Origin: Candidatus Chisholmbacteria bacterium
GTDB lineage: Bacteria; Patescibacteriota; Microgenomatia; UBA1400; Chisholmbacteraceae
Assembly: GCA_963704905.1 (NCBI GenBank)
Contig: CAVPHZ010000001.1
Coordinates: 579,438-643,437 of the forward strand
Length of the DNA: 64,000 bases
Direction of reading: 5' to 3'
The notes under the pieces were generated by a model. The model was not told where the DNA came from. It did not search any database and saw only the letters and a program-made list of their open reading frames with translations. Both the position numbers and the translations under genes were made by a program. Shown in pieces: positions 48,501-60,183 of the stretch (the stretch's first letter is position 1; every line of letters starts with the position of its first letter).

Positions 48501-50064
48501 TGGAGATACAGGTTCGAATGTTGAGACGTTATCGACTGGGGACTGGACATCATGTGGTGTGGATTTAACCCTCACTGATCGAGTTGATGTCAACCGGTCG
48601 TTTGTGTGGGGAACGACTCGAGATTCTGGGGGTGGACAAGCGTATGATCGAGCCGAGGCTTCGTTCCAATTGACAAATGAAAACACAGCTAGGGTGGATT
48701 GTGTAGACCCAGCAAATACCGACGCCTTTACTGGATTTGCTGTGATGTTCCCGGATTGGCGAGATGTGAGTGATCAAAAGATCTATCAGTTTGAATCTAC
48801 TGACTTTACATCTGGTTCTCTGACTACCTATTTTGAAGCAACGCTGGCATCAAGTGAATCAACCGCCTCAGCTCAAGCTAGGCTCTACAACATCACAGAT
48901 AATGAAGCAGTATCAGGGAGTACAGTAACCGTTTCCGGAACTACATGGGATAGGCAGCGGAGCAGTGCATTGACGATTGGTGCGTCGGCTGGAAATTTGC
49001 AAAGTGGAGATGAGTACATCGTGCAGCTTTCTTACGAATCGGGAGTTGAAACACAGGCAGCAAACGCGAAGCTAGTTTTAGAGCAAGATGGTGGAGGATC
49101 TGGTTTAACAACAACAGAGATTATTCATCAGTACAACAACACTCTGGCTACAGACAATGACAGTACGTATACGGCACAGAACTTTGATAATGAGTTTAAT
49201 CTTCAAGATTTTGATGGGGGAGATTTCGCTGGCTATTTTGAAACGACGATACAGACGAATAACCCGAGCAATGCTTACTATGCTCGGCTTGATATACCTG
49301 CTGGTGAAAGGACAGCAAGTGATGTTGAGTACACAAGATCTCGAAGTGCTGATGTTTGGTCAAGCTTACCAGGCAGTGCAACTGATATTGATATTGAGCT
49401 GCGGAATGCATCAACCTCTACCACCTCATCTTCAAATTCCTGGATGGTGATTGAAGTTACGAATCTTGGAAATCTGAGTGGAGGAAACCAAGACGTTATC
49501 GATAGTGTTCCAACGGGTCTAGCTAATAATTTCTCAACTGTGGTTGATACAACCAATTACGATGTCCATCTTTTGTATGTTGATGATGAGGCAACTGACC
49601 AGGTTTCCTATCGGCGCTGGAATAATTCAGTTACCCCGAGTTGGGATGCATCTGCAGTTAATCTTGATGCTTCAAATGATGATGCGTACGTAACGCTCTC
49701 ATTGGATTATGATGCTGGAGACCTGTATGCAATATGGATAGATACTGCAACGGGTTATATTTACTATCGTCAATGTGACGTGCCAATTGGACCAGCGGAT
49801 TGTTCAGCTGCAGGGAATTGGCAGAGTGAGGTAGCTTGGCAAACTGATGGGACGAGTACAAATATTTCAAGTAATTATTCAGGAGGCACGCACATATTCG
49901 CAACTTGGACCCGAGGAGCTAGTGATCCCTACACAGTAATGTGGGATATTATCTTAATTCCTGAGCAACTGTGGTTGTTTATAGGAGTAGCACCAATACT
50001 ACCACTGTTACTTAAGCGTCTTAGGGAAAAGAAAGCATATGCAAAAGTTAGAAACCAGACATAA
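24586..50064 (+). CDS. Giant (8492 aa) multi-domain surface protein. Domain order: N-terminal duplicated transposase-like HTH module; TM helices; processive family-2 glycosyltransferase domain; TM helices; ~7000-aa repetitive extracellular region; C-terminal sorting-signal-like TM tail.
   Basis: A single uninterrupted ORF of 25.5 kb. The GT2 region has 'ISVHLPMYNEK' (the first Asp), 'FDADFV' (D-x-D), 'ITEDFEMTLRL' (ED) and 'QRMRWAEGHSF' (Q-x-x-R-W). Hydrophobic helices flank the GT2 domain. The downstream Thr/Gly/Asn/Ser-rich repeats are typical of beta-helical fibres. The ORF ends '...WDIILIPEQLWLFIGVAPILPLLLKRLREKKAYAKVRNQT*'. Confidence 0.8.
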   Translation: MKSQKRRVKRLNNAFYYFIQRIDAVSLKRQLKSFKHIRDRFRDRPSPSNDREVQVGDHSQTPPDVLDQSTREKEIVNIAWRDPGVSVDELADKIRLRQWGHDITNDLVYQTLLAYGIAEKEHRLRWAQDHQYDFTEAWNALIPTAKRKTTTGKLSAQERLAIIRRVEQGEPVDQVCASVGVSRTLFYKWKKRYDTVKTEAWKRTFGFTRGTLDERELLAVLESQPASKPVVYGGQATAEQVRAVLETVVKNPDWGVGKIYKHLPKEDGKPIIGRHGVQKILERENLRSIEERRYWVSTQPKKGSTEDTQIIKLAWQDPGLSVEDLVDKIRLRQWGHDITNDLVYQTLLAYGIAEKEHRLRWAQDHQYDFTEAWNALIPTAKRKTTTGKLSAQERLAIIRRVEQGEPVDQVCASVGVSRTLFYKWKKRYDTVKTEAWKRTFGFTRGTLDERELLAVLESQPASKPVVYGGQATAEQVRAVLETVVKNPDWGVGKIYKHLPKEDGKPIIGRHGVQKILERENLNTFTKRQSWISSQPAFAPEPTGVRPELSWQDRIKLATDEFIPSRAPAPPPGQSALLYYFSFYSPYLFIALFVFTGLFGFGYLLGHAQDSSQAIGWFFASVALTMGAFFFLYSMKYYLTLAIVLSYTREGSVPFESERDTAREGTLIERLFGLSLRKESGEEHLGELPRKAGGLEPNVDEIHLERYPFISVHLPMYNEKHVAERLLRAATSFDYPAYEVIVADDSTDETKDIVMRFADHWNKNKKPGQPVVKISHRETRAGYKGAALQLALQRTDQRAEFVTIFDADFVPYPDSLTLFVKYFKHSAGTLDYQSEKFQVRQAHKSGAKSEWSVDVDEKTRVAAVQGYQWHVLNKSENWVTRGVRTEYSGSYVIERSGEELYGGMKQISGSVYMIRRDLLERFGWGTSITEDFEMTLRLYEAGYRVVYTPYIQAPSECVSTLKRLFRQRMRWAEGHSFNVKKRFWPLMTSDNLTKNEKFEFLYLTPYYLQAAFFLIGTISWLLSETLFAARLPFWTTVWGWSLVFTNMLSLPLMNGIGLFLEEAEERDFLGLFSFVLLSYLLVPFQAYASVKGFVQDEEGPWFRTPKSGKVTDILRRGKFARFLRYILQQQFASAKMQGRLREGALAAYPVPAFAMARSSAKLPIGGFSIKRRQARWIGKLVISFMLILTTTLVSFAPYVQSLSSVGLPPTGSGVILSPDMSSKDKPVPTSERRSSISLPNFVNEAFAAEEEGDVLVVEYTGGVRVTSPKHDFSRAETPQFVVERNEPFLQNLWKGVRRLFGRADDTGMQIRLRDSKGQAVEDFETSGMGEDVFDVRLPTELQYKPGKYQLVVEYDGKTIEQDFTWGVLAVNTNKSIYLPGDSAQLSMAVLDDEGRMVCNADVTLKVSFPSGEVAYRSTDDGTIQVNRGCLKREMILEPDYETEIEVGGVGVYQMELTAKTLDGERKVYDSFEVKESVLFDVERDSATRIYPKEIYPVTINITANQNFTGQVIETVPEGFRIAENEEYRLQQLENGRTEIIWDVDWRTGDQVTIAYPYNAPNRSPDFYLVGPLRIENNGEEVFSEARRWQIAADWTTEIPHTSLFTETDDTGANTTVDVYEDVDNTTISHATLNGDGFGDTEQVLLIANVNFDGNDANAVYGFRIADTAGNPVANTTVRREVRTADDRQEIQRIMTRTNKVSGEGFVLQKAFHTAGQTTPNILKASIVVLGLGNLTENVDYVYDDDTSTTALSTTAATFATITTPASDNRWQGDVLVMDHWKADGNTTSQSLQHGLRRDTDSLVNITRQEGEDSNDLYGGGSIYVYNNADTSAHTYDVRMYTSAGTSFSHNYSSIIAFRASLFEDFEWNNTDTESIPGDTNFNEMAGITPFSPQNSGEFVVMGFAVGESNAVANSDDVRIRLQVDGTNVPSGYDDSTNGTMLEDPDDLYGINLASLETFDTSSKDIDMDAATDVTTVGFSYRTLVAFSMGLAPTISISGSCDQYDRSTDCVDDGSNEIRVAVDGVLQGQSDTVVDGAWSITGVPTPAGGAVITVFINGETTASERATTVTEYSGVGNITAVPLYQRHLVIGSDQDQTTTNTDLQQYDYSASGNDVDVIYDVNNATNDLTVDNLGSYSDETLLILSGDTYIPDSGSSGNVATHDFETSGTVTADGNAFTVSGSWDNNSVFTANTSTVSMTATSGTETIDSTGASTAAFNTLNLGSGSGTATWNIGSALDVDGALTIDWGTLDMNGANNINLANNLTINANGNYTSGTGTVTFDGSGTNTWTDNRATKANMGTVSINGTSKTINFGSSVTAASVNVAGSQTLGLGSSGYTLTLTGTGTPFTVTGTLDEGTDSTVVYTGNGVTTIVAETYDNLSVHPGGTVTHTLAAGTFNINGDFSVGDGTNTGTIQANTNDPAITISGSMTINANATYEAASLVANDLTIGNDFTNNGTFTHNSGSIVFNDASNTSTLLYSGTTTFGTFEVTTDSKAIEFDNVDQTTIVDAFTINGQACGTKITINSDTGAAQFEIQTSGATVSVTYADIQYSNALTAMSATNSANSGNNTGWTITEDTCASMSLSGNVYNFGTSTALTECDASGATFELRLRIQTTTYSASCSNTDGSYTFTGISIPTVGDGMVLWIDDAEVPETDGALVVRFDGVQPSPNNTFYDDAVTVTSDDTNPVDILHMNVYDNGQDSDIPYTATDASPDTLVVNSGYEFLVQLKSGVASGSTVFQPNGTVTTNATGGDFHIDDNATAFLDTDTNTIGRDILIDGGARLNIDGDTNVNGGDITMSGTSPRIDTTAGTPTVTMTSTGSIGGGTTPTTTFHNLATTGTGTTTVTNSTTTNGDVTVGTGTTFTVNADLTVNGGDFTNTTTGVINTTSGTPTVTMSGTGNLGGGSGSVTLFDLTTSGSGTTTIASTVTTNNDVSVGAGTTLRINNNLNIDGGDLTTTSTGIIDYTSGIPTVDLDGTGTLGGGSGSITLYTLDLGDTTTDTTTLSSTIAADNQIIINTNQTFTVGSNNVTVGSSSVTDSGNISNSGTYTQTGGTTTIQSSDTSTAPTIGGSGTSTFNNLDIGPTTADNLTYTFNTAGDITVSNLLTIQDAGGADTHTLDGQNDTISLPASGTPFVVDSNAVFSANTSTVSYTGTSATSVASTTYYTLNIGTTANSSTLTYTLLGDTGVDNVLTIGASSGTGVHTLDASSFSLTMGGAGTPLVINSQGLFDESTSTVNFTGDGATTVNARAYYNLEIGNDGSLGAGRTYTSAAGTITIASNLAVGAPTGSFTHIFDVNTNDTTITVSDSVTITSLGNYSASSNVSNPLTIANDFTNNGTFTHNSGLVVFDTAANISTLTYSGNTTFNDLSMTTVGKPMSFDAAQQTIIAGTFTITGASCGNLTPLSSETSGNQWDIDIQGSAAVTFVYITDSNAITSASASNSTDGGNNTGWNISKGSCASSVTGEVAIYREDTGLEDVSDTTQFDHQWDTIVTEGASFDLNDTGGSPDYASVDLADAGHYLVLYNAGWQRVDTTDTRTETQAWIDLAGTDIQYGRSTCYIRSSGNANECWQSGAAIINATAGQDIKIEGQRTDSSTFTQERTAQEAGLQLIKLDDTWGYARIHENTGGQSFNTNGGYDAVTWDDNTDELDAGFFAHSSSTNSEEITLKLDGHYLVSANVMLQSDSTTYRRNRDMRLTLGDGTTQTEIEGTRVTSYMRGSNGAQDHVASFVGIINASAGDVLELEIGCIRNEDTTNSCAGVTNIGNQSGITIAKLPDSADYVRIHDDAVQDIDDATPAPILWEDSGEEEEDAGSFSHSGGSSQVNIDYSSSADYLFFSNQYADRTSDTNGTRAYPHWNWRTSGSSTLQYGSFGKYNRGDNGSTGTWTSGNSGGAILLGLTSSDYVETLNTEEANGATDTAGEFQVNRSAIQGVNLNTLLQAFIDITGTCDQYDRSTDCVDDGSNEIRVAFDGVLQTSLDSAVDGAWQISGLTAPSTGAVMTVFINGETTASERATAVTTYSGSGSVGSVTLYQRHLTIGSDQDQEVTNTNLQQYDYSASGNDVDVIYDVADATNDLTVDNLGNYTDEVLLVLAGDTYRPDSASSGNVATHDLETSGTVTADGNTFTVSGSWDNNDVFTANTSTVTMTATSGTESIDSSGASTATFNTLNLGSGSGTATWNMGSALDVDGALTIDWGTLDMNGANNITLANNLTINSNGSYTKGTSTITFDGSGTNTWTDNNSTKVDMGAVSINGSSKIINLGSSVNATSVDVAASQTLGLASSGYSLTLLGSGTAGSRPFIVSGNLDEGTNSLVTYAGTAATDIQAETYHDLTLAPSAAGGPSFRLGTASSQTIDVDGDLVVGDGTNAVTILANTFDPTINLAEDLTLNANSTWTKSPTATLTFNSTTTPVTWTDNNSTKQDIGIVSIDGPKEVDLGTSVTATTINVTGGDTLDLQSLGYVLQITGSGTGGSRPLIVAGTLSEGIDSLVEFVGTSATDIEAEIYHDLEADQSGTTFTAFGNIEASGVLTIQNGTYDGSSFTTTLSGTGTPFVINDTFTPSTSTISYTGNGATTITSTTYYTLSVGTSNSANITYSAGGALVVNNQLNLQSAAATFNNTLSVGANDLTVGLSGVTNSGGISVPLRSSLTQSASATTSIRSSSGGSASIGGDGSIQFFNLTFDPSVASAPTFTLGNGASQTIDVDRNLTVGNGTNPVIIQWETNDPTLTVGGNLLLSNNSTWTKSTTATLTFDGATTPVTWTDNNGTKQDLGDVSIDGPKEVDIGGSVTATSVDVTGGDTLDLQSLGYTLSLTGTGTPFTVGGTLSEGTDSTVRYIGNGSTNITAETYDKLSIHPGGTVTHTIQTGTLTVNGDLSIGDGSNTGTIEANTNDPTITVAGSMTINANGIYQASSNTLNPLTIGDDFTNNGTFTHNSGRIVFNDSGNTSTLLYAGNTTFGAFDVTSASKAMAFDSADQTIITGALTINGAACGTPITLSSATGGNQWDVDAQGSVSVDYVTLTDSNAITAVSATNSTSGGNNSNWTIDGGTCADNWEGIAYTNDDEATPLSAVSVCAVVNSGTPVCETTNGSGVFTIVSQDASATDQLTFFVDGGVDVGNTVTISDGGDITTGDNLRLYEDHVTLRHEQGTDISIVDLDAYDNDQNSTDMLYDAEDLATDTLVIESGYELFIYNSYTFDADGTVTTQGAGGNLQVDNSATAILDTTSNTIASDLIIDSGATCTINGDTSINGGDITMSGTSPVLNTTAGTPTVTMSSTGSIDGGTTPSITFYDLATTGTGTTTIANATTVNNDVSVGTGTTLRVNANLNIDGGDLTTTTTGSIDYTSGTPTVDIDGTGTLGGGSGSITFYTLDLGDGTTDTTTLSSNISVDNSITVNASQTLNISSNDVTVGSSSVTDSGSINVSGIYSQSGGTTTVQSSDTSTAPVIGGSGTSTFYNLDIGPSTADNLTYTFDTASDINVSSILTIQDAGGADTHTLDVQNDTVTLFGSGTPFVVDSNAIFNENTSTVSYTGASATNVTAETYYNLNIGTTANSSNVTYTLAGDTTVSNILTIGASSGTGTHTLDGSNRTVMLSGTGTPLVINSQGDYEESTSTVNYTGDGATNVTVNGYYHLEIGNNGSLGADRTYTSAGGTVTVGGNLTVGAPSGVRTHTLEVNTNDTTVAITGSLAITTLGIYSASSNTANPLTIGNDFTNNGTFTHNSGRIIFNDVSQTSTLLYSGTTIFSTFEVTTAGKFMEFDNVDQTTITAAVTIDGQGCGSLVEINSDTGAAQFEIQTSGATVSIDRARIQWSNALTAMTANDSKDGGNNTGWTINEGACADMEVTGFVYDFGTSTALTECDGSGATFELRLRVLTTTYSASCSAADGSYTFSGVVIPSTGDGLVVWIDDVEAPETDGALVTRFDGTKPSSDNVFYDDAVTVTSDDTNPADIIDMDVYDNGDDSDIPYSATDAATDTLVVNSGYELLVQLKSGVASGSTVFDPNGTVTTNATGGDFHIDDNATAFLDTATNTIGRDIEIDGGARLNINGSTDVNGGDITLSGSSPRVDTTAGTPTVTMSSTGTIGGGTTPTIAFYNLATSGSGTTTISNTATVNNDVSVGAGTTLRVNANLNVDGGDLTTTTTGSIDHTSGTPTIDIDGTGILGGGSGSITFYNLDLGDGTSDTTTLASTITVDNQITINSDQTFTVGSNSVNVGSGSVTDSGTISVASSGVFNQSGGTTTVTSSDGSTAPTLGGAGTTTFYNFTLGSTSDARTYTFDATGDITVSNNITLTDPGIGDSHNLDVQGNDVDVGSGSVTDSGSITVPSRSRYIQGTSGTTTIHSSDNSTAPILGGAGDTTFYNLIIGNTSDALTITVDFSGSIEVLNGLIVTDPGVGDIHTLDALGNDLTVGSSGATDSGDIIVALNAVFTQSSSGTTTVSSSDTSTAPLLGGGGTTTFYTLNVGSTTADNLTYTFSTAGNITVSNVLTIQDAGGADTHTLSASDDTVTLTGTGTPFVVDSNASFTESTSTVNYIGDGSTNVAAEGYYNLEIGNSASLGTGRTYTSQTGTITASNNLLVGAPSGSFTHLFEVNTNDTTITVSADVEITALGSFSASSNTANPLTIGDDLTNNGTFTHNSGRIVFNDSGNTSTLLYAGNTTFGAFDVTSASKAMAFDSADQTIITGTLTINGTACGTPITLSSATGGNQWDVDAQGSVSVDYVTLTDSNAITAVSATNSTSGGNNSNWTISGGTCADNWEGIAYTNDDEATPLSAVSVCAVVNSGTPVCENTNGSGVFTIVSQDASATDQLTFFVDGGATFGNTTTISDGGDITTGDNLRLYEDHVTLRHEQGTDISIVDLDAYDNDQNSTDMLYDAEDLATDTLVIESGYELFIYNSYTFDADGTVTTQGAGGNLQVDNSATAILDTTSNTIASDLIIDSGATCTLNGDTSINGGDITMSGTSPVLNTTAGTPTVTMSSTGSIDGGTTPSITFYDLATTGTGTTTIANATTVNNDVSVGTGTTLRVNANLNIDGGDLTTTTTGSIDYTSGTPTVDIDGTGTLGGGSGSITFYTLDLGDGTTDTTTLSSDMAADNQVTVNTGQTFSNASSNVTVGSSSVTDSGSITVSGVYSQAGGITRVQSSDTSTVPVIGGSGTTTFYNLAVGTASDALTYTFDLASDITATNDVQITDGGVSDTHTLDTTGSNFDIDVGGDWINDEGTSGFTANASTVTFTGVTSTQQVSGTSSFYNFTATFGSGAIEFEQSQTQTILTGGVFTIAGTSCIDYIDLWSQSPSTAWNINLVGAATASVSYVRVTDSNASGNPMTANNSHNGGGNTNWTIVVGECTGTSSSPTATGFSFQRKTFFDNVNARYWLFSHNGSEIDIRYSTDDGGTWNTVAALSYDTNDFSVWWDQIGSTEYVWLAVANNNDIVVRQGSLGLSSITWDVDESVALDGTGASDTYSYAYLSMDSADYLWVGARHYDGTNYHYLTAATHEGGGSQTADSDPSTWTWTGVPHQLTDDQANTNVYGNVVALNNQDMYATFVTNTSLQGCWWDDSDGKWEDNSGSLCSVVGDPTIEQQINIIDQEYSTTGTDQPGNNSLGLVAFDSADYTGDTVYFEAIIRCDSCTGGNTEVDVALVDDTSTTTVTTVSSTSSTYTRVRSGSISPTADEYTVEVTRDATAGTAYVKAARLLIVQTSATDIDDTVSMVELGNNDAMFGARVQRGATTISAGSASANATLGQSVDISRSFAICSPGESGDTAPNSITFSCTLSSSQLTFTRYGSTGTAALLIEWQVVEYDNISVQTGTETFNTASTQENFTSGEGMTAVRLDKTFVVLTARSDGTSLNDNNDRYVSPNLTSTTNLQLSRNATSTNVTVDFFIVEFLDDTYVEQWSGLTIPDAGSTDDSANLSGRSGSGVDTSRSFALGYQRGSSTDDQGMDANTMTLELIDADTVRATRTGSTSGYGNMEVEGWVVELPQEGSGDTGSNVETLSTGDWTSCGVDLTLTDRVDVNRSFVWGTTRDSGGGQAYDRAEASFQLTNENTARVDCVDPANTDAFTGFAVMFPDWRDVSDQKIYQFESTDFTSGSLTTYFEATLASSESTASAQARLYNITDNEAVSGSTVTVSGTTWDRQRSSALTIGASAGNLQSGDEYIVQLSYESGVETQAANAKLVLEQDGGGSGLTTTEIIHQYNNTLATDNDSTYTAQNFDNEFNLQDFDGGDFAGYFETTIQTNNPSNAYYARLDIPAGERTASDVEYTRSRSADVWSSLPGSATDIDIELRNASTSTTSSSNSWMVIEVTNLGNLSGGNQDVIDSVPTGLANNFSTVVDTTNYDVHLLYVDDEATDQVSYRRWNNSVTPSWDASAVNLDASNDDAYVTLSLDYDAGDLYAIWIDTATGYIYYRQCDVPIGPADCSAAGNWQSEVAWQTDGTSTNISSNYSGGTHIFATWTRGASDPYTVMWDIILIPEQLWLFIGVAPILPLLLKRLREKKAYAKVRNQT
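24859..25439 (+). repeat. Copy A of a 581-bp 100 % identical core inside a 705-bp in-frame tandem duplication (the unit encodes 235 aa of an HTH-HTH DNA-binding module).
   Basis: Line-by-line comparison of 24859-25439 with 25564-26144 shows identity at every checked position. The offset of 705 equals 3 x 235. Antisense ORFs 25237..25683 and 25942..26304 share an identical 64-aa tail, confirming the identity. Confidence 0.85.
25564..26144 (+). repeat. Copy B of the 581-bp identical core of the 705-bp tandem duplication.
   Basis: See copy A. The flanks of the two units are diverged: WRDPGVSVDELADKIRL vs WQDPGLSVEDLVDKIRL at the 5' side, and ERENLRSIEERRYWVSTQ vs ERENLNTFTKRQSWISSQ at the 3' side. 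Confidence 0.85.
26683..27513 (+). other. Family-2 glycosyltransferase (GT2) catalytic domain of the giant protein, processive synthase type (cellulose/chitin/hyaluronan-synthase-like motif set).
   Basis: The motifs 'VHLPMYNEKHVAERLL...YEVIVADDSTDETKDIV', 'TIFDADFVPYPDS', 'GTSITEDFEMTLRLYEAGYRVVY' and 'QRMRWAEGHSF' are read directly from the translation. Confidence 0.7.
39290..40720 (+). repeat. Copy 1 of a ~1.43-kb near-identical intragenic direct repeat. Copy 2 lies 5097 bp downstream.
   Basis: The translations are nearly identical ('NPLTIGDDFTNNGTFTHNSGRIVFNDSGNTSTLLYAGNTTFGAFDVTSASKAMAFD ... TLDLGDGTTDTTTLSS'). Three pairs of antisense ORFs (39741..39953 / 44838..45050, 39934..40203 / 44869..45300, 40146..40427 / 45243..45524) are identical. 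The first ~700 bp show a few percent divergence and the last ~735 bp only 2-3 differences. Confidence 0.8.
44387..45817 (+). repeat. Copy 2 of the ~1.43-kb near-identical intragenic direct repeat.
   Basis: See copy 1. The offset of 5097 equals 3 x 1699, so the repeat is in frame. Confidence 0.8.
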
Positions 50065-50112: not shown

Positions 50113-50688
50113 ATGAGTCAGAAGACAGTTTTTAAACGAATTTTGGCAATTACTTCCATCGTACTCGCATTGCTGCCAATGCTTGTGACTTTTGCGTCTC
50201 TGTTGACGAACTTATTTGACAGAATGGGGTGGTATGTTTGGCTTCAGCAAGTCATTGTACCGTTTGAGTCGAGGCTTGTGGCAATTCTTGTAAGACTGGT
50301 TGGAATTTCCGGCATGGTAACTCCAAATACTGAGCATTTTTCTATGGTTCTGCAAAAACCTGATAATGTGTTGTTACCAGTTCAACTTTCGTGGAATTGT
50401 CTGGGTTGGCAGAGTTTGTTGTTACTCGGTCTAACGCTCGTTACAGGATTACAGGGACCATATTCACGGTTTTCTAAACTCCAAGTGATAGTATTTGGAG
50501 TGCTGGGAACATTTCTCAGTAACCTGGTTAGAATGGCGCTTATTACGTCGCTTGCGTACTATTGGAATACGTTTGCAGCAATGATTATTCATGATTATTT
50601 TGCGATGTTTGTTGCACTCGGGTGGATGATATTTTTCTGGTGGTTTTCGTATGCCTATGTGCTTGAAGATAGTCCCGTTGATCAGTAG
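50113..50688 (+). CDS. Small polytopic membrane protein resembling the exosortase/archaeosortase family (putative sorting transpeptidase).
   Basis: The 191-aa product has ~5-6 hydrophobic helices. A Cys sits in 'LSWNCLGWQSLLLL' (codon 50398-50400) and an Asn-x-x-Arg in 'LSNLVRMALI' (50521-50532), matching the recalled Cys / N-x-x-R active-site pattern of the exosortase family. A strong SD (GGAGAT) lies 4 nt before the ATG. The gene sits directly after a giant protein that ends in a tripartite sorting-signal-like tail. Confidence 0.45.
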   Translation: MSQKTVFKRILAITSIVLALLPMLVTFASLLTNLFDRMGWYVWLQQVIVPFESRLVAILVRLVGISGMVTPNTEHFSMVLQKPDNVLLPVQLSWNCLGWQSLLLLGLTLVTGLQGPYSRFSKLQVIVFGVLGTFLSNLVRMALITSLAYYWNTFAAMIIHDYFAMFVALGWMIFFWWFSYAYVLEDSPVDQ

Positions 50689-50873
50689 TCAATGAGGAGC
50701 TTTTCTCAAGCTCCGCTTGAGTTATCTGGTCACCGTAAGCTCAAGTTGTTATTGTTGTGTTGGGTCGTTTACGGGGTAAAGGTTTTCGTATGCTTTTGTA
50801 TTGGAGCAAAAAGTGTCAGTAGTTTAACTTATGAACTATTTATATTCCTACTTGACAGTCCTGTAGTTATTTT

Positions 50874-51236
50874 GTGTATACTTATATAACTATGAGAAGC
50901 CTGCCCAAGACCTTCTTTGTTTTTCTTGCTGTTATAAGTCTCTTATCTTTGTTGGCGTATTCACCTCAACACACTCTTGCTCAAGAGGAAGACTTCACTG
51001 AGGAGGAAGAGATTGTTGAGGAGGAGGAAGTGCTTGAGGAAGAAGAGGTAGTTGAGGAAGAAGTAGTTGAGGAAGTTGTTGAAGAAGAGAATACAGAAGG
51101 GGAAGTACTTGGAGGTGCAACGGAACTTGGGGATACTGGCGCAGAGGACTATATATACGTAGTGGCAGGTTTGGTCGGCGTTTTGGTTGTGGCTGCGGGT
51201 TTTAAAATTGCACGCAGTAATGTCGAAGAGTACTGA
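50874..51236 (+). CDS. Small secreted acidic protein. It has a signal peptide, a Glu/Val-rich (EEVVEEE) repeat region and a C-terminal hydrophobic anchor preceded by 'LGDTG'. It is a possible non-canonical sortase substrate.
   Basis: The N-terminus 'MRSLPKTFFVFLAVISLLSLLAYSPQHTLAQ' looks like a signal peptide. The C-terminus 'ELGDTGAEDYIYVVAGLVGVLVVAAGFKIARSNVEEY' has the motif / hydrophobic / charged-tail layout of a sorting signal. The gene overlaps the start of the sortase gene. Confidence 0.4.
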   Translation: MYTYITMRSLPKTFFVFLAVISLLSLLAYSPQHTLAQEEDFTEEEEIVEEEEVLEEEEVVEEEVVEEVVEEENTEGEVLGGATELGDTGAEDYIYVVAGLVGVLVVAAGFKIARSNVEEY

Positions 51237-51801
51237 ATTCATTCTCCAGTTAAGTTTCATTCTTTTTGTTGCGCTCATTCCGTCATTGGTTATCATCCGT
51301 GTCTTTGAACCTGCCAAAGCTTTGGCTGAAAATTTTAAAGAAAACGATCCGCAAGTGTTTTTGAATCCACTTGTAGCTTTTGTTAATGAGGGAGTTATTG
51401 AGAGAAAGCATGTGAAGGAATCCCCAGTGCTCTTATCAATTCCTGCACATGACTTACAATTGCCTGTTGCTGAAGGAAAGATTAGTGATAAGGTATGGGA
51501 GCTTTATGATGATAAAGTCGCTTGGCTTTCGACGAGTGATGAACCTGGAGAAGGGAATGTTATCCTTTATGCCCATAATCAGAAGCATTTATTTGCACCA
51601 CTTCATGATGTGGAGGTTGGTGAAGAGATTGTAGTTGAGCATGGAGGATGGGAATATCTTTACGAGATTGTTGAGAAGCGTAAGGTTGAACCTTCTGATG
51701 TAGATTCTGTCCTGACTGATCAAGAGCAACTCACTCTATACACTTGCGATGGAACATTTGATCAGCGGCGATTAGTTGTGATTGCACGACCCAAGGCATG
51801 A
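51220..51801 (+). CDS. Sortase-family transpeptidase.
   Basis: Has an N-terminal TM anchor (FILQLSFILFVALIPSLVIIRV). The catalytic His is in 'NVILYAHN' (~51574), the Cys in the TLxTC motif 'LTLYTCDG' (51745-51747) and the Arg in 'RRLVVIARP'. The ORF track allows an earlier start at 51187; 51220 (MSKSTEF) minimises overlap with the upstream gene. Confidence 0.7.
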   Translation: MSKSTEFILQLSFILFVALIPSLVIIRVFEPAKALAENFKENDPQVFLNPLVAFVNEGVIERKHVKESPVLLSIPAHDLQLPVAEGKISDKVWELYDDKVAWLSTSDEPGEGNVILYAHNQKHLFAPLHDVEVGEEIVVEHGGWEYLYEIVEKRKVEPSDVDSVLTDQEQLTLYTCDGTFDQRRLVVIARPKA

Positions 51802-51848: not shown

Positions 51849-53927
51849 GTGAAACACAGCAGACTTTTTCCTCTTTTTCTGTCAATCTTTTCTATTTGGC
51901 TATTATGGCCAGTAATTCATGCTCAAGGACCTGCGTGGATGGGGTCTGCTGATGGATTCATGCTTGCGAAAGCGAGATTTCTTCAAAACGGTTTTGGATT
52001 AGGAAGTTGGAATCGGTTTTGGTTTCTCGGAATTCCGGGACAGCATATTGGATCTCCATTGTTACCATACTTGCTGGCTATCGGTTTTCGTATCATTGTA
52101 AATCAGCCCATTCGCATGTTTCAGTTGTGGAGACTGATTGTTGTCGTAGGTGTTATTGGATCAGTGAGTGGTATTTATAAACTAACAAGAACGTTCGTTA
52201 GAGAGCCAATGAAGGCTAAAGGTATTGCACAAGCATTGTTTGTTTCGCTTCTTACACTCTCTTTACCTTCCAGCCTTCTTTTTTTTCCACAAGTATTTGG
52301 AATTACCCGTGAATTTGGTTTTGCGAGTTGGTCATTGTTCAGCCCTCTCTATTTGGGAGATGGTCATCGATCGGTCGGATTTGCTGTGATTCTCACTATT
52401 CTGTTTGTTGCAGCACAACTCCTTGAGCGTTGGAATTTACGGACTGCAGTACTTATGAGCGGATTGGTTGGACTTTTGTTACTGATTGATTCTTTAAGCC
52501 TATTGCCTCTTCTGTTGTGGCTGATTGTTGTAATGATGTTTGCCATTTTGCGACACCAGAGGGAAACGAGTGAAATTGCAGAGTATTGCATAAGATTTAT
52601 ATTTATAATCTTCTTCGGCTGTCTCCTGGTTTCATTCTGGTTTACTCCTGGTTATGTACTTAACTTGGTAGGATCACCGTCGTTAGGGGGAAAGTCTTTC
52701 TTATCTGTATCAATAGGTATTGTGCAGAGATACGTTGTCATTCTTCCTATTATTTTTGGCATTCTCATCGGTAAGAAGATGCTCAAGAAATTATCAAATC
52801 TAACACTTCTGGGCTTATTCGGATTCATTATATTTGGGGTAGTAACTCTTGTTTCATACTTTGCTGATCCGGATTTTTGGCAAGATTACACTCGGTTTGG
52901 CCGATCATTGGATTTGAGCATAGCCTTTCTAATAGGAGGCGTTGTTTTCCAGCAAAAAAATATTCGTCGATCGTTTCGACTACTATTCTACTGGCTTCTA
53001 TTGATTGTGCTTATTTATCAGACTATTTCTTTACGTGGGAGCGGGCTGATGAGTGAGGTAGGATCAATTTTTGAGAGTAGTGAGTATCAGGTGGGATCTG
53101 AACTGCAGCAGCTACTTTTGTCGGAATGCAAAACCAGTGAAACCTGTGAAGAGCGAGCATACCTCTCTGGCAGTTCGGCTTTTTGGTTTAATGCTTGGTT
53201 TCCATATGCACAAGTGCGTGGTGGGAGTGAAATGGGTTCATTGAATGATTGGTGGCCACATGGTTCATTTCAAATCCGTGAAGGTCGTACAAGCGACTTG
53301 ACGCGTTTATGGCTTGAGGCGATGGGGGTTGAATTCGTCGTTGTTCACGGTCAGGATTCAGATGAAATATATCATGATTTTCGCCATCCTTCGAAATTCG
53401 ATGAGATGGATGGTTGGGAGGCAACAAGTAAAGGTGAAGGAAATGTCATCTATCAGAATAATAATTCATCCTTTGCTCGAGTTGCTTCTCAGAATCTACT
53501 CTCGATTTCTTCTCCACAACAGGGTGATGATGTTGAGCAACTCCGTCAATATGTTGAGCAGCTTAATCGTCAAGCTAACTTTGAATGGATCACCCAGCGA
53601 GAGTTTGAGATTTTCGCGACGACAACTACAGGAGAAGGTATAAGTGTACCTGTATCCTATTCAGCTTTCTGGAGAATTATCGAAAGTACCGTTCCAGCGA
53701 AGTTAGTCCGAGATCCGTTGGGGTTGATGTTTATACAGCTCGACGGTTCTGGTCCAATTTCAGTTCGATTACGCTATTCACCATTTCCAGATATTTTAAG
53801 CGGTATGGCTTTTACCATTGTTGCTTTTTTCATTCTGCTTCGTAAGCCGAATTTCATTGAAGATACTGGAGACAAGTTCAGGAGCTTTGTAGGTACAGAT
53901 TCGGATATTGATCGCACTGCGCTATAA
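51849..53927 (+). CDS. Large polytopic membrane protein (692 aa) with ~12 TM helices followed by a C-terminal soluble domain. It is a putative GT-C-type glycosyltransferase or polysaccharide-handling protein, family unassigned.
   Basis: Hydropathy was read from the translation. The C-terminal 'VVVHGQDSDEIYHDF...GEGNVIYQNN' is shared with the 734-aa paralogue ('MANGQDSDISRYWL...NGDIIYRVP'). It uses a GTG start with no clear SD, so the start is uncertain. Confidence 0.45.
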   Translation: MKHSRLFPLFLSIFSIWLLWPVIHAQGPAWMGSADGFMLAKARFLQNGFGLGSWNRFWFLGIPGQHIGSPLLPYLLAIGFRIIVNQPIRMFQLWRLIVVVGVIGSVSGIYKLTRTFVREPMKAKGIAQALFVSLLTLSLPSSLLFFPQVFGITREFGFASWSLFSPLYLGDGHRSVGFAVILTILFVAAQLLERWNLRTAVLMSGLVGLLLLIDSLSLLPLLLWLIVVMMFAILRHQRETSEIAEYCIRFIFIIFFGCLLVSFWFTPGYVLNLVGSPSLGGKSFLSVSIGIVQRYVVILPIIFGILIGKKMLKKLSNLTLLGLFGFIIFGVVTLVSYFADPDFWQDYTRFGRSLDLSIAFLIGGVVFQQKNIRRSFRLLFYWLLLIVLIYQTISLRGSGLMSEVGSIFESSEYQVGSELQQLLLSECKTSETCEERAYLSGSSAFWFNAWFPYAQVRGGSEMGSLNDWWPHGSFQIREGRTSDLTRLWLEAMGVEFVVVHGQDSDEIYHDFRHPSKFDEMDGWEATSKGEGNVIYQNNNSSFARVASQNLLSISSPQQGDDVEQLRQYVEQLNRQANFEWITQREFEIFATTTTGEGISVPVSYSAFWRIIESTVPAKLVRDPLGLMFIQLDGSGPISVRLRYSPFPDILSGMAFTIVAFFILLRKPNFIEDTGDKFRSFVGTDSDIDRTAL

Positions 53928-54234: not shown

Positions 54235-54747
54235 TTAACTTAGACTACTCGAGGTGTGTGAAGTGATTTGTGATTGTGGTATTGGTGAGAGAGGCTGGCT
54301 TGGTAGATCTTTTGTTCTGGCTCTTTGAAGGAGGATAAAGCTAGCTATAAGAAGTATTGCTATGATTGCAGCCAGGCCTGCAGTGGCTATGTCGCTTTTA
54401 AAACGGCTTTTAGCTGGCTTAGTGGGAGTGATTGTCAAGGTCTGTTTCCTAATAGGTTGTGTTATATGAGATTGATAGATTGGCTTTGCGGTAGAAATAG
54501 TTTTTGGTTTTTGTTCTAACTTTGGTTTTGGTTCAAAAACTTGTGCCATTGGTTGTTTGAGTATATTTTCTAGCTGTTTTCGACCATATCTGCGGTGTCC
54601 ACCCACTGTTCTTCGAGCTGTTAGCTTTCCCCTTTTTTCCCATCGTCTAAGAGTGTCTTTTGAGACACCCAAATATTCTGCTGCTTCTGCGATTGAAAGC
54701 CACTGTCTGGTGCCAAAAGGGATTATTTTCACAGGTTGTTTCTTCAT
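54235..54747 (-). CDS. Membrane-tethered DNA-binding protein with an N-terminal excisionase/MerR-type helix-turn-helix, a low-complexity linker and a single C-terminal TM helix.
   Basis: 'WLSIAEAAEYLGVSKDTLRRWEKRGKL' is the classic excisionase-family HTH signature. The TM helix is 'IATAGLAAIIAILLIASFILL'. The linker is Pro/Lys/Thr-rich. Confidence 0.55.
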   Translation of the reverse strand: MKKQPVKIIPFGTRQWLSIAEAAEYLGVSKDTLRRWEKRGKLTARRTVGGHRRYGRKQLENILKQPMAQVFEPKPKLEQKPKTISTAKPIYQSHITQPIRKQTLTITPTKPAKSRFKSDIATAGLAAIIAILLIASFILLQRARTKDLPSQPLSPIPQSQITSHTSSSLS

Positions 54748-55648: not shown

Positions 55649-56884
55649 ATGGTTTCTAAAGAAAATACTATACGATTGAAATTGAAAGAGAATCTATTTG
55701 TGGGATCTCTGGTTGCCATGAACGTGGTACTCGTATGGCAATATTTTAATCAACCGTTTCCGTACGTGTTTTCTGCGCCGCTCATTCCAGTATCCGTCGA
55801 TTTCGTGAGACGTTTTGGAGCTGATATAGATTCGGCTGCTCGGATGATGCTTTTTGGTTTTTATATCTTTGGTCCAACTACACTTTATTACCTTGTTCGA
55901 AATGTCACGGGTCGACGAATGAGTGCGGCGTTTGCAGCAGTCCTATACTCACTGCCAATTTTTCGCGCACGATTGGAAGCTATGACACTTCTTGGAGATG
56001 GAGCACATATTGCATCACTTACGGTTATTCCGCTTGCGGTAATGTGGTATTTAAAATATATACGGACGGGAAAATACATTGTTTCTATTATTGCTGGTGC
56101 TTTTCTTTTGCTGGTGTCGCTCATCAGTCCATTTGGATTTTTTGTACTTCTGGGGATACTTGCGGTAATTACATTCTCTGAAATGCTTCTCGGTTCAGGA
56201 AGAACCAAGGCGATACGACTTATATGGGTGATACTTGTTGCCTTGGGTTTTTCTGCCTTTTGGTATAACCCATCTTTTATTCAAGCTAATTTTACTTCTA
56301 CATCTGGAAGAGCGGTTGTTGCTGCGGTAAATAATCTTATTCCGATCTCATTTGTTGTGTTACCAGTCTTGGCTACGTTTGGATATCTGATTTTTGATAA
56401 GCGCGCACATCTTCAACCCCTATTTATTGCATTGGGAATGACAATCCTTTTTGGACTTATATCGTTTGCTGGGGGATTAGCGCCGTTTGCTGTATCTGCT
56501 CAACGCCGGTATCTATCTGAGCTCCTTCTTTCTCTGGCGTTTCTCTGGGGAGTTGTTGGTACATTTGTATATGACATGATTGGTGTTATTCCAGCTTCAG
56601 AGTATTTTCCAGTATCCATGGAGAAACGTAAGACGATTCAACGCTCTCTAGTTATTTTGATGATTGTTATTTCAATTGCTGTTATTTTACTTGTGCCGTT
56701 TGAGATCTCCTCGAGAAGGGGAGATGACTTTCTCGACGAGGGTGTGATTGAGGCATCAGTTTATGAGGTTGTGCGAGTGAGGTCTTCGTCTAGCACGTTT
56801 TCGACTGTTGTTGGATATGGTATTAGCGGATTAACAGTTCTTGGTTTGGTCGGTTTGTATCGGTGGGTGCTGAGGCGTTCTTGA
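55649..56884 (+). CDS. Polytopic membrane protein (411 aa, ~10 TM). It is paralogous to the N-terminal membrane domains of the neighbouring 692- and 734-aa proteins but lacks their C-terminal soluble domain.
   Basis: Hydrophobic helices run throughout. The arrangement resembles the N-terminal region of 56959..59163. Confidence 0.45.
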   Translation: MVSKENTIRLKLKENLFVGSLVAMNVVLVWQYFNQPFPYVFSAPLIPVSVDFVRRFGADIDSAARMMLFGFYIFGPTTLYYLVRNVTGRRMSAAFAAVLYSLPIFRARLEAMTLLGDGAHIASLTVIPLAVMWYLKYIRTGKYIVSIIAGAFLLLVSLISPFGFFVLLGILAVITFSEMLLGSGRTKAIRLIWVILVALGFSAFWYNPSFIQANFTSTSGRAVVAAVNNLIPISFVVLPVLATFGYLIFDKRAHLQPLFIALGMTILFGLISFAGGLAPFAVSAQRRYLSELLLSLAFLWGVVGTFVYDMIGVIPASEYFPVSMEKRKTIQRSLVILMIVISIAVILLVPFEISSRRGDDFLDEGVIEASVYEVVRVRSSSSTFSTVVGYGISGLTVLGLVGLYRWVLRRS

Positions 56885-56958: not shown

Positions 56959-59163
56959 ATGCCTCGAAATTCATTATTGAGCAAACCCACTGTAAAGAGA
57001 TTTTCTGTGTTGTTCAATAGATTAGGTCGATTGCTCGTTGGGTTTATAGCAGCAGCTGTCATTGGCTATCTCAACTGGATGGTTATCCATGGCTGGTTTG
57101 GCGGTGAAGGTCCAGCAAATATTGGTTCGATTGAGGTGTCGTATGTTTCCATGGCGAGATTTTTGGTGGACTTTGGCTACAAAACATGGGCACCGTTCTG
57201 GTACTTTGGTTTTCCATTTCATCTTTTTTATACACCTTTGTTACCATTTCTTGAAGCAATACTTCACAACGCTCTTGGTTGGCATCTTTGGGAAGCGTAT
57301 CGGTTTATCACTGGATTTGCTTATATTTTGGCTCCGATTTCTGTGTTTATTTTAGGGTGGGTGCTCTCTGAAAGGTTTATTGGCGGCTTTGTCAGCGGAA
57401 TTCTATACTCAGTGGTCCCAACGCTTTATTACTTCATCTTGCCTGGAACGAGGGATTCTGTTTATGGAGAAGTAGCTGCAGATCGGTTTTCAGCTACATT
57501 TTGGGATCCACGCCGATTTACAATTTTGATCCGATGGGGTGAAGGTCCACACACATTATCTCTGGTGTTTTTACCTCTGGTGGGTGCTCTCTTCATGCTT
57601 TCTCTAAAGAGGCGGAAGTTTTGGTTACTTGTTCTGGCATCTCTGTTTTTTGTACTCACAGCTCTTTCCAATGCTTTAGGAATGCTGGGGGCAGTGATTT
57701 TGGCTTTATCAATAGCATTTGTCCATTTTGCTCGAGAGTCTAAAGATCACATTCGCACAGCTACTTGGACGGTTTTGCTGTTGGTGATGGGACTAGGCTT
57801 GGCATCATTTTGGTATAACTTGTCATTTATAATGAATTTCTTTGCTGAGGGAGGTGGAGCAGCCTCGATTTACCTATCTCTATTTCCTTGGGGTTGGTTG
57901 GCTTTTGCACTTGCAGTCGTGATTCTTTATTTTGTAACCGGTAAACTTCTCAAAGATTGGGGTTTTGCTTCATCTTTGATCTGGTTCTTAGCTCTCTTTT
58001 TTGTGGTTTATGTTTTCTATTCCTCTGCACCACCAGAGCTTTCGAATCAGCGGATTGAGCTACTTCCACAAGCCTTGCGTTATATCACTCAGGTTGATCT
58101 GGCTTTCTCAGTGCTGGTTGGAGTAACAATTGCATGGGCACTCAAGTTCATTGGTCGGCGGTTTTTACTTGTGGAACGTATTCTTTCTCTAATTCTTGCC
58201 GGAGTAAGTTTATATGCATTTATCTATATCCAACCGTTTCTTACCACATCGTACAATGTCTCAAATACTGTCGTTGACTTAAGTCAAACGAGAGAGGAAA
58301 CAATTGCTACTCTTCTTGAGAAGAACGTGGATCCAATCAAAGGTGAGCGAGTATTTCTGCCTGGAAATTATGGTTTTTACTTGAATTGGTTTACAAATGT
58401 CTGGCAACACAGAGGCGGTTTGTTTCAGGCTGCAACCCATCCTTGGCCAGACCATGTGCATTATCAGATGGCAAATGGGCAAGATAGTGACATTTCCAGA
58501 TATTGGCTCAAGGCAATTAATGCCAAATATATTGTCATTCCTACTCCGGAATCTCAAGAGCTTTATAAAGAGATAAAAAATCAAGAGCGGTTTGAGGATT
58601 TTGAAAAAGTCTATGAGAAGAATGGAGATATCATCTATCGAGTGCCGCTTCTGCGCCCATCCATTGCAAAACCGGTTGATGAGAATGCGATGATTTCTCT
58701 GGTAACACCAGAGAAAGGAGATGATGAGGAAGCGTTACAAGAATACGTTCGGTGGGTTGAGCGATCTTCAGAAACAGAGGCACGCTTTGAAATGGTTGAT
58801 CATGACCATTATGTTCTTTCAGGTTCGCTTGAGGAGGGGGAAGTATTACTGGTTCAAATGACAGCTGACTCAGGATGGAGTGCCATGCGTCGTAATGCTC
58901 CTCAGGGTACACGAGTTAAAGTGAAGACAGGGAAAGATCCTTTAGGATTTTTGGTTCTTTATCCTGATCCAGGGGATTTTGAGATTGAACTTACTCATTC
59001 TACAACTTGGCAACTCTGGCTTGGGTATCTTACAACCTTTATGACGATAGGATTCATCTTTTGGTACGGTTGGGCTTCTCGAAGATTTGCCAAAGGTGTT
59101 GAGAAACTAAAAGCTAGTAAAGCCAAGAGGGATGCAGACAAACGAGAAACAGGTAAAAAATGA
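56959..59163 (+). CDS. Large polytopic membrane protein (734 aa) with a C-terminal soluble domain. It is a putative GT-C-type glycosyltransferase-like protein and a paralogue of 51849..53927.
   Basis: Has ~12 predicted TM helices, then a soluble domain containing the 'GQDSD' block shared with the 692-aa protein. The C-terminus has an extra amphipathic/TM segment (LWLGYLTTFMTIGFIFWYGW) and a basic tail. Confidence 0.45.
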   Translation: MPRNSLLSKPTVKRFSVLFNRLGRLLVGFIAAAVIGYLNWMVIHGWFGGEGPANIGSIEVSYVSMARFLVDFGYKTWAPFWYFGFPFHLFYTPLLPFLEAILHNALGWHLWEAYRFITGFAYILAPISVFILGWVLSERFIGGFVSGILYSVVPTLYYFILPGTRDSVYGEVAADRFSATFWDPRRFTILIRWGEGPHTLSLVFLPLVGALFMLSLKRRKFWLLVLASLFFVLTALSNALGMLGAVILALSIAFVHFARESKDHIRTATWTVLLLVMGLGLASFWYNLSFIMNFFAEGGGAASIYLSLFPWGWLAFALAVVILYFVTGKLLKDWGFASSLIWFLALFFVVYVFYSSAPPELSNQRIELLPQALRYITQVDLAFSVLVGVTIAWALKFIGRRFLLVERILSLILAGVSLYAFIYIQPFLTTSYNVSNTVVDLSQTREETIATLLEKNVDPIKGERVFLPGNYGFYLNWFTNVWQHRGGLFQAATHPWPDHVHYQMANGQDSDISRYWLKAINAKYIVIPTPESQELYKEIKNQERFEDFEKVYEKNGDIIYRVPLLRPSIAKPVDENAMISLVTPEKGDDEEALQEYVRWVERSSETEARFEMVDHDHYVLSGSLEEGEVLLVQMTADSGWSAMRRNAPQGTRVKVKTGKDPLGFLVLYPDPGDFEIELTHSTTWQLWLGYLTTFMTIGFIFWYGWASRRFAKGVEKLKASKAKRDADKRETGKK

Positions 59164-60183
59164 ACCGCTCTTTACCTCAGGTATCTGCGATTATTGTCAC
59201 CTACAATAATAAGAGGTGGCTTATGAAATGTATTCCCTCTCTTCTTAAACAGACGTATGGAAATCTTGAGGTCATTGTTGTTGACAATGCTTCCGTTGAT
59301 GGTGCGAGTGCTTTGGTTAAAGAGCACTTTCCTGAGGTGAAAGTAGTCATTGTTGATGAGAATCGCGGTTTTGGTTCCGGTTGTAATGCAGGTGCTCAAG
59401 ATGCTCGAGGGAGGTATCTTCTCTTTTGTAATGAAGATATGGTTTTTGATAAGAACTACGTCAAGACTCTGGTAAGGGAGCTTGAGATTGATCCTCTCAT
59501 TGGAGTTGCGACAAGGAACAACGCATGCTTACACCGAATCCAAAACAGGGATAGAGAATCAGAGGACTATTCAGTCACGGGGACTACTGTTTAATTACAC
59601 AGGAGTTTTGGTTGGAAGTGGACAGAAAGTGGAAAATCAGGAAAATGATGGCGATATTTTTGCTGCAACTGTACCATTTATTATAAGAAAGATTACTTAT
59701 GATCGGGTTAAGGGATTTGATGAAGACTTCTTTCTATATTTTGAAGAAGTTGATCTTTGTTGGAGGGTTTGGTTAGCTGGAAAGCGTGTGACTTTTGTTC
59801 CCCAGGCAAAAGCTATGCATGTCGGTGGAGTATCTACCGGTAAGCTTTCTTCCTCGAGTGTAGTTGAATTTACACTGCGTAATAGACTTCAATCGTATCT
59901 TATTAATCTTGGAGCACTTCGTCTACCTATCGCTTTACTTATGCAACTGCTAATGGGAGCGCTGGCTGTGGTTATCCTTCTACTTCGAACTAAAATCACT
60001 CTTTCATTTGCAGTGGCGCGAGCGTTTGCATGGAACTTATGGCACTTACCTCGTAGTCTTAGCAAGCGAACTCAGGTACAAAAGAGCCGATTGGTTGAAG
60101 ACCGTGATTTTCTATTGCGAGTGACGGGTCCGATTCCGCTAAACAAGCTTCTTTTTCTTGTCGGGTTTCGTACGAGTCTGTGA
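59160..60183 (+). pseudogene. Family-2 glycosyltransferase (GT-A fold, rhamnosyltransferase-like) split into two overlapping ORFs (59160..59594 and 59482..60183) by a frameshift. It is either a pseudogene or a sequencing error.
   Basis: The N-terminal ORF has 'VSAIIVTYNNKRWLMKCIPSLLKQTY...EVIVVDNASVDGASALV...NRGFGSGCNAGAQDARGRYLLFCNEDMVF'. The C-terminal ORF continues with 'IQSRGLLFNYTG...GFDEDFFLYFEEVDLCWRVWLAGKRVTFVPQAKAMHVGG' in frame +1. The junction is between ~59505 and 59575. Its start overlaps the stop of the upstream gene (ATGA). Confidence 0.55.

Follow-up and report, generated by a model that had tools for sequence, protein, structure and literature searches.

What do the sortases of Microgenomates sort? 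These enzymes are reported to be near-ubiquitous in the group (Meheust 2019, PMC6744442), and in the literature we found no description of what they sort, nor of sortase motifs in the Candidate Phyla Radiation (CPR) or Patescibacteria. The question is raised by positions 50874–51801 of a 64-kb stretch of Candidatus Chisholmbacteria bacterium DNA (contig CAVPHZ010000001.1; the whole stretch is hereafter the window), where a sortase gene overlaps the gene of a small secreted protein, here called the mini-substrate. We propose, at a probability of roughly 0.72, that the two genes are a self-contained operon in which a substrate and its sortase, from a CPR (Microgenomates-type) sortase lineage, are coupled at translation. 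The answer offered by this locus and 51 relatives is that each such sortase comes with its own upstream substrate.

A probable substrate gene overlapping a sortase gene

The mini-substrate and sortase open reading frames (ORFs) are both present on the plus strand within 50874–51801. The pair comprises the following features.

50852..50882, plus strand: promoter-like element made up of TTGACA and TG-TATACT with a 19-nt spacer, its end 10 nt ahead of ATG 50892 (read from the sequence)
50892..51236, plus strand: mini-substrate gene, 114 amino acids (aa) plus stop; ATG 50892 is the likeliest start
50892..50981, plus strand: Sec-type signal peptide, residues 1–30, with basic n-region MRSLPK, hydrophobic core and TLA/Q cleavage site (by inspection)
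50982..51137, plus strand: predicted mature peptide, residues 31–82, 52 aa, ending ...VLGGATELGDT
50985..51090, plus strand: imperfect 18-bp (and 36-bp) tandem repeat encoding EEEE[IV][VL] units (Tandem Repeats Finder)
51105..51122, plus strand: conserved pre-motif VLGGAT, residues 72–77, of which VLG is conserved in relatives
51126..51140, plus strand: sorting pentapeptide LGDTG, residues 79–83, with predicted cleavage at T82/G83
51150..51203, plus strand: membrane-spanning hydrophobic segment YIYVVAGLVGVLVVAAGF, residues 87–104 (hydropathy scan)
51204..51233, plus strand: charged tail KIARSNVEEY, overlapping the sortase start; K/R..R[ST][NH].EE is conserved in relatives
51220..51801, plus strand: sortase, 193 aa; ATG 51220 is the likeliest start; identical to public protein P0001
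51574–51576, plus strand: sortase catalytic His119, motif LYAHN
51745–51747, plus strand: sortase catalytic Cys176, motif TLYTCDG
51769–51771, plus strand: sortase catalytic Arg184, forming the catalytic set with His119 and Cys176

The mini-substrate protein is laid out as MRSLPKTFFVFLAVISLLSLLAYSPQHTLA / QEEDF...ELGDT / GAEDYIYVVAGLVGVLVVAAGFKIARSNVEEY and possesses the architecture of LPXTG-type substrates: a signal peptide, a pentapeptide, a hydrophobic segment and a charged tail at the extreme C-terminus. Its extended sorting-signal peptide is VLGGATELGDTGAED, and the post-cleavage part of the signal reads GAED-YIYVVAGLVGVLVVAAGF-KIARSNVEEY; by canonical sortase chemistry, cleavage would fall between T82 and G83. 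Position 2 of the pentapeptide is Gly, where signals of the TIGR01167 type have Pro. Relatives of the protein share the signal-peptide layout, with an A/Q or A/E site. The original prediction had described an overlapping small secreted protein of 120 aa with a sorting-signal tail; the tripartite signal is confirmed, and the length is refined to 114 aa, the value also given by public-assembly gene callers. We considered and rejected the possibility that the small ORF is spurious, as there are 46 unique conserved versions and independent gene callers agree. A search with the 46-aa sorting signal against 1.84 billion cluster representatives returned 4 matches (itself and its three closest relatives), the query being too short to be useful.

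The gap of 203 nt upstream of ATG 50892 holds the promoter-like element, and no Shine-Dalgarno sequence is seen there. The closest relative (L060) retains this element almost base for base, and the majority of mini-substrate loci have a TTGCA or TTGACA -35 box plus a -10-like hexamer near the ATG. A consensus promoter/terminator scan reported fewer promoter sites than in shuffled sequence and missed the site at 50852 because of its 19-nt spacer. The mini-substrate and sortase genes overlap by 17 nt (ATGTCGAAGAGTACTGA). We infer that they are expressed from a bicistronic mRNA of their own, probably near-leaderless, with translational coupling.

The protein encoded downstream scores 75.8 bits with Pfam PF04203 (cutoff 26.6) and 47.1 bits with TIGR01076 (cutoff 39.35). 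H119, C176 and R184 are invariant in 35/35 aligned homologs, and PF04203 is carried by all 93 homologs found, the named ones being Daviesbacteria, Levybacteria or Patescibacteria sortases, in keeping with a CPR/Microgenomates-like organism. An AlphaFold2 model (predicted local distance difference test, pLDDT, 87.4) consists of an N-terminal helix (residues 3–40, matching the N-terminal transmembrane helix at approximately the same residues), a disordered linker and a beta-barrel. All Foldseek matches listed for this model in the PDB are sortases, with classes A, C and E represented alike (E ~1e-9, 20–25% identity). By profile and model, the protein is a member of the sortase superfamily with predicted transpeptidase activity, which bears out its earlier reading as a bona fide sortase from the His, Cys and Arg motifs.

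Conservation of the pairing and of the motif

The comparison set consists of 59 loci with sortase relatives, drawn from one-genome-per-species and metagenome collections, together with the contigs of the three closest homologs. Pairing was counted over 52 distinct CPR-family sortases with upstream DNA, and motif position 2 was left free in the search. In 51 of the 52, the same-strand gene directly upstream ends with L-x-x-T-[GSND] and ~30 residues that include a hydrophobic helix and a charged tail; in most of these loci it overlaps the sortase gene. Among the 51 pairs, Gly (24) and Ala (27) share position 2 and Pro never occurs there, which greatly strengthens the case for LGDTG as a non-canonical but genuine-looking motif. 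The consensus over 46 unique substrates is L (46/46), G (24) or A (22), any residue, T (46/46) and G (33), S (10), N (2) or D (1), and a VLG tripeptide precedes the motif Leu by 6–8 residues in 43/46.

Within the window, the mini-substrate is the sole credible ORF combining an LxxTG-like motif, a hydrophobic segment and a charged tail, and it lies directly upstream of the sole sortase. This uniqueness and the recurrence of the same architecture at 51/52 related sortases rule out a chance origin of the pair. In the ~622 kb that the related loci span, nearly all such sorting signals stand immediately upstream of a sortase. The upstream protein of a Chloroflexi outgroup sortase carries LPQTG, indicating that the motif shift is lineage-specific.

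The cargo is variable: mini-proteins of 100–160 aa mostly carry LGxT[GS], and LAATG prevails in proteins of 200–400 aa that have Fn3-like or ice-binding-like domains. Among the mini-substrates, spacers span from 52% acidic to >80% Pro/Ser/Thr/Ala. An invariant signal with freely varying cargo is the pattern expected of a sortase substrate and argues against an incidental motif. Judging by this conservation, selection acts on the sorting signal and not on the cargo, and it is very probable that LGDTG is a genuine sorting motif and that this substrate and sortase are a dedicated pair with coupled translation.

In some Gottesmanbacteria-type genomes, two substrate/sortase modules lie in tandem (L017 2378–3623, L019 3470–4754). 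Their secondary sortases, which are more divergent (hidden Markov model, HMM, score ~105), each have their own upstream LAFTG protein.

Some observations weigh against a dedicated substrate/sortase operon. At one related sortase (L041, 1/52) no such gene lies upstream; the cargo is without a folded domain, an obvious function or a conserved composition; and the generic LPXTG-anchor HMM TIGR01167 gives the mini-substrate 12.6 bits, below its cutoff of 15.9. That last score would also suit an alternative in which the small protein resides in the membrane as an accessory of the sortase, or is simply tail-anchored, and LGDTG is incidental. That sortase-linked small transmembrane modulators exist is shown by the actinobacterial SafA, a small membrane protein with a genetic link to a sortase (PMC9282373). 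However, SafA is 52 aa long, is encoded downstream of srtA, adopts an N-in/C-out topology opposite to the one predicted here, and acts through an exoplasmic FPW motif, having neither a signal peptide nor LxxTG; none of these traits applies to the mini-substrate, which lacks FPW. Moreover, were the motif incidental, Leu and Thr would not be retained in 46/46 sequences at a fixed distance from the transmembrane segment while the remainder is freely replaced. We therefore regard an accessory or simply tail-anchored protein as very unlikely.

Assignment of the enzyme to a sortase class is hindered by uniformly low scores. On the window sortase the NCBIfam class HMMs give 34.9 (D), 34.3 (C), 33.8 (SrtD), 24.3 (F) and 21.0 bits (GN) against cutoffs of 140–166, and the class E model NF033747 gives 30.4 bits (cutoff 160; best E among 35 family members 5e-12). 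No class A or class B model is reported among its NCBIfam matches. Across family members the class C model is the best class-level match (best E 3e-15) yet remains far below its 160-bit cutoff. A PDB profile search returned matches scattered over classes A, C and E at 25–52 bits. Thus no single class is favoured by class HMM, PDB sequence or fold, and the 35 relatives likewise stay below every NCBIfam class cutoff; on these scores, the enzyme family falls outside NCBIfam's curated sortase classes.

The class C match raises the idea of pilus-like polymerisation in the class C manner or, alternatively, of hydrolytic release of a soluble acidic peptide. In 18/46 relatives a Lys is found among the 12 residues preceding the motif, which would fit polymerisation, but the mature window peptide contains no Lys and there is no pilin-like domain. 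The conserved lid or DP[FWY] segment, a class C trait, was not found in the sortase, where residues 41–70 are unconserved and modelled with low confidence. An N-terminal Gln would probably cyclise, which we also count against this alternative. Among all the explanations considered, we rate it the least probable.

For the substrate/sortase operon we hypothesize the following mechanism. Sec would export the 114-aa precursor, whose C-terminal helix and charged tail would keep it in the membrane. The sortase, itself membrane-anchored and using His119, Cys176 and Arg184, would read an extended signal, VLG-x3-4-L-[G/A]-x-T-G (here VLGGATE-LGDTG), cut after Thr82 and transfer the 52-aa peptide to an envelope amine, most likely that of a peptidoglycan precursor; what we infer here is where the cut falls, which acceptor is used and what the peptide does physiologically. 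The surface would thereby gain a domain-less, low-complexity peptide, strongly polyanionic in this organism.

Dedicated substrate/sortase operons and motifs without Pro (LAXTG, LPNTA and a single LGATG) are already known. The locus is best read as a lineage-specific variant of a known system, in which the LGDTG-type motif appears to be the norm for the enzyme lineage. The closest parallel in organisation involves the class D sortase SrtC of Bacillus anthracis, which shares an operon with its own substrate BasI, whose motif LPNTA departs from LPXTG (PMC3208642). Here, in contrast, the substrate gene is upstream and overlapping, the signal is L[G/A]xTG with VLG, the cargo has no folded domain, and class D HMMs give the window sortase 34–35 bits (cutoffs 140–165). 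Experimental support for an LGxTG signal comes from another B. anthracis protein, BasJ, whose LGATG tail confers SrtA-dependent anchoring, so Gly at position 2 can work (PMC3208642). However, BasJ is a single exceptional substrate of a housekeeping class A LPXTG sortase, whereas in the present family the motif is a lineage-wide rule.

Class E sortases recognizing LAXTG (Streptomyces SrtE1, Thermobifida SrtE and those of Corynebacterium and Actinomyces) resemble this family in having a small residue in place of Pro at position 2, and about half of the family is LAxTG. In SrtE1, a class-specific Tyr in the beta3/beta4 loop reportedly accommodates Ala at this position. However, class E sortases are housekeeping enzymes with many dispersed substrates, in contrast to the one-gene-one-substrate arrangement here, and Gly dominates position 2 in the mini-substrate clade. 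The fold similarity of T. fusca SrtE to the window sortase equals that of other classes. NCBIfam also describes small surface proteins of ~50–110 aa with a signal peptide, a short spacer and a sorting signal (NF053819, EF2685/EF0750; NF058583, LAXTG small protein), but the scores are sub-threshold, 19 bits (cutoff 47) for the window protein and 14 (cutoff 65) for a relative, making it a member of neither.

In the literature we found no account of a lineage-wide L[G/A]xTG plus VLG rule, of a one-substrate-per-sortase organisation in CPR, or of domain-less mini-substrates. As the motif is L[G/A]xTG with VLG and not LPXTG, predictors based on LPXTG would overlook the proteins on the surface of these bacteria, which are uncultivated and probably attached to hosts. 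The domain-less mini-substrates offer a simple test case for wall display in CPR, and the family may supply a new sortase/motif pair for protein ligation.

Cargo composition and the GT-C neighbours

The mature window peptide (QEEDFTEEEEIVEEEEVLEEEEVVEEEVVEEVVEEENTEGEVLGGATELGDT) contains 27 Asp or Glu (D+E) among 52 residues, no Lys or Arg, 4 Thr and no Ser. The share of D+E in mature peptides is distributed as follows.

Window: 52%
L060 (sortase 61% identical): 45%
L061: 36%
L063: 23%
Every other mini-substrate: 0–13%

Acidity is thus limited to the window and its three closest relatives and declines with distance from the window, and the values of 0–13% elsewhere mean that charge is not the conserved property of the family. 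The non-acidic mini-substrates consist of 56–86% Pro/Ser/Thr/Ala. The polyanionic character appears to be a recent, repeat-driven specialisation and not a conserved function; a counter-ion or wall-spacer role of the acidic peptide, as speculated originally, is possible in this organism. A family of processed acidic surface proteins with LPXTA (TIGR04383) is absent from the NCBIfam matches at E<=1, and we found no literature under that name.

Downstream of the pair, the window encodes several multi-transmembrane proteins.

51849..53927, plus strand: 692-aa multi-transmembrane protein with a GT-C glycosyltransferase fold (AlphaFold2 and Foldseek)
55649..56884, plus strand: 411-aa multi-transmembrane protein, a distant relative of the transmembrane part of GT-C (GT-C HMM, 32 bits)
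56959..59163, plus strand: second GT-C paralog, 734 aa; a GT2 gene begins at 59160, overlapping the stop of this paralog

Searches of Pfam, NCBIfam and PDB sequences with the 692-, 734- and 411-aa proteins gave nothing, and the GT-C identity of the 692-aa protein came from the fold search alone. Its AlphaFold2 model (pLDDT 71.6, predicted TM-score, pTM, 0.74) has GT-C enzymes as all of its top 24 PDB matches (PglB, DPY19, AglB, STT3, AftD, ArnT, ALG9), with a best E of 1e-5 and TM-scores of 0.35–0.48. By phmmer, the 411-aa protein matches GT-C-like ORFs and similar 411-aa-type ORFs adjoining the pair in L001, L027 and L030.

GT-C homologs adjoin the pair in eight lineages, on either side and sometimes overlapping (window, L001, L006, L026, L027, L030, L034, L061, L063), and the window has three GT-C paralogs with GT2, epimerase and GT4 genes just downstream. 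This neighbourhood hints at an explanation in which the co-located GT-C enzymes glycosylate the mini-substrate outside the membrane from polyprenol-phosphate sugars, and the sortase fixes a protein-primed wall glycopolymer. The Pro/Ser/Thr/Ala content of most mini-substrates is typical of O-glycosylated linkers and suggests that the Pro/Ser/Thr-rich ones are glycan carriers. There is a precedent in Actinomyces oris, where the sortase (SrtA) substrate GspA is glycosylated by the adjacently encoded LcpA (PMC6381275), although LcpA is an LCP phosphotransferase and not a protein of GT-C fold, GspA includes some 225 aa of folded region, and glycosylation in the present system is a hypothesis.

Against a glycan carrier stands the window peptide itself, with only its few Thr residues as Ser/Thr sites. 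Moreover, no GT-C of this kind was seen within 6 kb in ~10 further mini-substrate lineages, and the GT-C family also occurs near exosortase cassettes that lack a sortase. The acceptor of the GT-C enzymes could equally be a wall polysaccharide, and the TM-scores given above are low. We consider a glycan-carrier function doubtful.

A broader proposal within the operon reading, which we hold only tentatively and judge rather unlikely as a whole, is that the cargo is the low-complexity peptide itself. Microgenomates would then graft domain-less brushes onto their surface, polyanionic here and Pro/Ser/Thr-rich elsewhere, there maybe glycosylated by GT-C enzymes, through the signal VLG...L[G/A]xTG and a sortase class outside A–F. 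If true, such peptide brushes would be a functional counterpart, made of protein, to teichoic acids or wall glycopolymers.

The GT2 gene following the 734-aa paralog is split into two overlapping ORFs in different frames (59160–59594 and 59482–60183). A frameshift is probable, reflecting either a pseudogene or an assembly error.

The exosortase-like gene and its giant-protein cassette

Upstream of the mini-substrate lies a second putative sorting module.

49957..50034, plus strand: sorting-signal-like C-terminal tail of a giant protein, IPE-QLWLFIGVAPILPLLL-KRLREKK ([VI]PE, transmembrane segment, basic cluster)
50113..50688, plus strand: exosortase/archaeosortase-family protein, 191 aa (TIGR04178, 33.9 bits, cutoff 23)

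The exosortase-like protein has 413 homologs, with 55–80% identity among the 119 non-self matches listed, and C96, R140 and H160 are invariant in 28 of them. None of the named subtypes reaches its cutoff (ArtC 24.6, cutoff 100; XrtG 16.6, cutoff 102.75). All 7 giant proteins examined end with [VI]PE, a Pro-containing transmembrane segment and a basic cluster, resembling PEP/PEF-CTERM, and the IPE tail is likely the substrate signal of the exosortase-like enzyme. We rejected the idea that the sortase acts on the giant protein, which has this IPE-type signal of its own and no L[GA]xTG C-terminal signal.

The original prediction stressed two sorting systems side by side. Their adjacency in the window is real, and it recurs in L060, with both systems in the same island in L001 and L063. 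This could suggest that the two enzymes work on the giant fibre as one coupled system, the acidic peptide being, for example, ligated to or co-assembled with the giant protein. However, 5/7 exosortase-like copies examined (L066 twice, L067, L068 and L060; L001 was counted without its upstream DNA) are found a short way downstream of a giant protein with helix-turn-helix (HTH) and GT2 domains and its own signal, and the cassettes of L066–L068 have no sortase within 10 kb. The same arrangement is found in the window, where the giant protein has N-terminal transposase-type HTH domains and GT2, and in one L067 copy a GT-C gene stands between the giant gene and the exosortase-like gene. Conversely, the loci of ~45 sortase pairs contain no exosortase-like gene, and most sortase pairs have none within 6 kb. 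In L060 an opposite-strand beta-lactamase gene separates the two units, and the mini-substrate gene has its own promoter-like element.

Functional coupling of the two enzymes is therefore highly improbable. Their co-residence is a local synteny of the window, L060, L001 and L063, and the exosortase-like gene and the sortase pair are two separate modules, neighbours and not one machine. What did not stand from the original prediction is the linkage: the exosortase-like gene belongs to a giant-protein cassette of another kind, which is much more widespread and may merit its own study.

The separating gene in L060 (4969–5817, minus strand) encodes a class A beta-lactamase-like protein (PF13354), and another beta-lactamase-like gene is found beside an exosortase-like gene in L067. 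The cassette itself, seen at 24586–50688 in the window and in L066, L067, L068 and L060, consists of a divergent MerR gene, a giant protein (two transposase-type HTH domains, GT2 and thousands of repeat residues) and an exosortase-like protein of ~190 aa. Such cassettes are widespread in public CPR data, often with the divergent MerR gene upstream; one genome can carry several, with up to three found within 20 kb. We found no paper combining 'exosortase' and 'Patescibacteria'.

A MerR-family HTH protein with a hydrophobic segment at its C-terminus, AGLAAIIAILLIASFILL, is encoded at 54235–54747 (minus strand). In L066–L068, MerR genes like this one are again found upstream of the giant-protein cassettes. 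The hydrophobic segment and this recurrence suggest a membrane-tethered regulator of envelope loci.

The N-terminus of the giant ORF (24586–26400) contains a near-exact duplication of ~240 aa, including an IS3-type HTH, within the first ~600 residues. The 8,492-aa ORF may be produced as one protein or may use internal starts. A run of large ORFs at 23–21459 (23–14050, 14022–15986, 16107–19826, 19756–20217 and 20395–21459) has a similar Thr/Gly/Ser/Asp-rich repeat composition. It could represent a second giant fibre locus, possibly one frameshift-broken gene, with the first ORF running out of the window start. In L063 (6957–8387; also in L064 and L065) the exosortase-like gene has an in-frame stop after WNCLGWQS, and the frame continues into a YfhO-like (PF09586) ORF; the interrupted L063 gene could be a decaying or fused copy.

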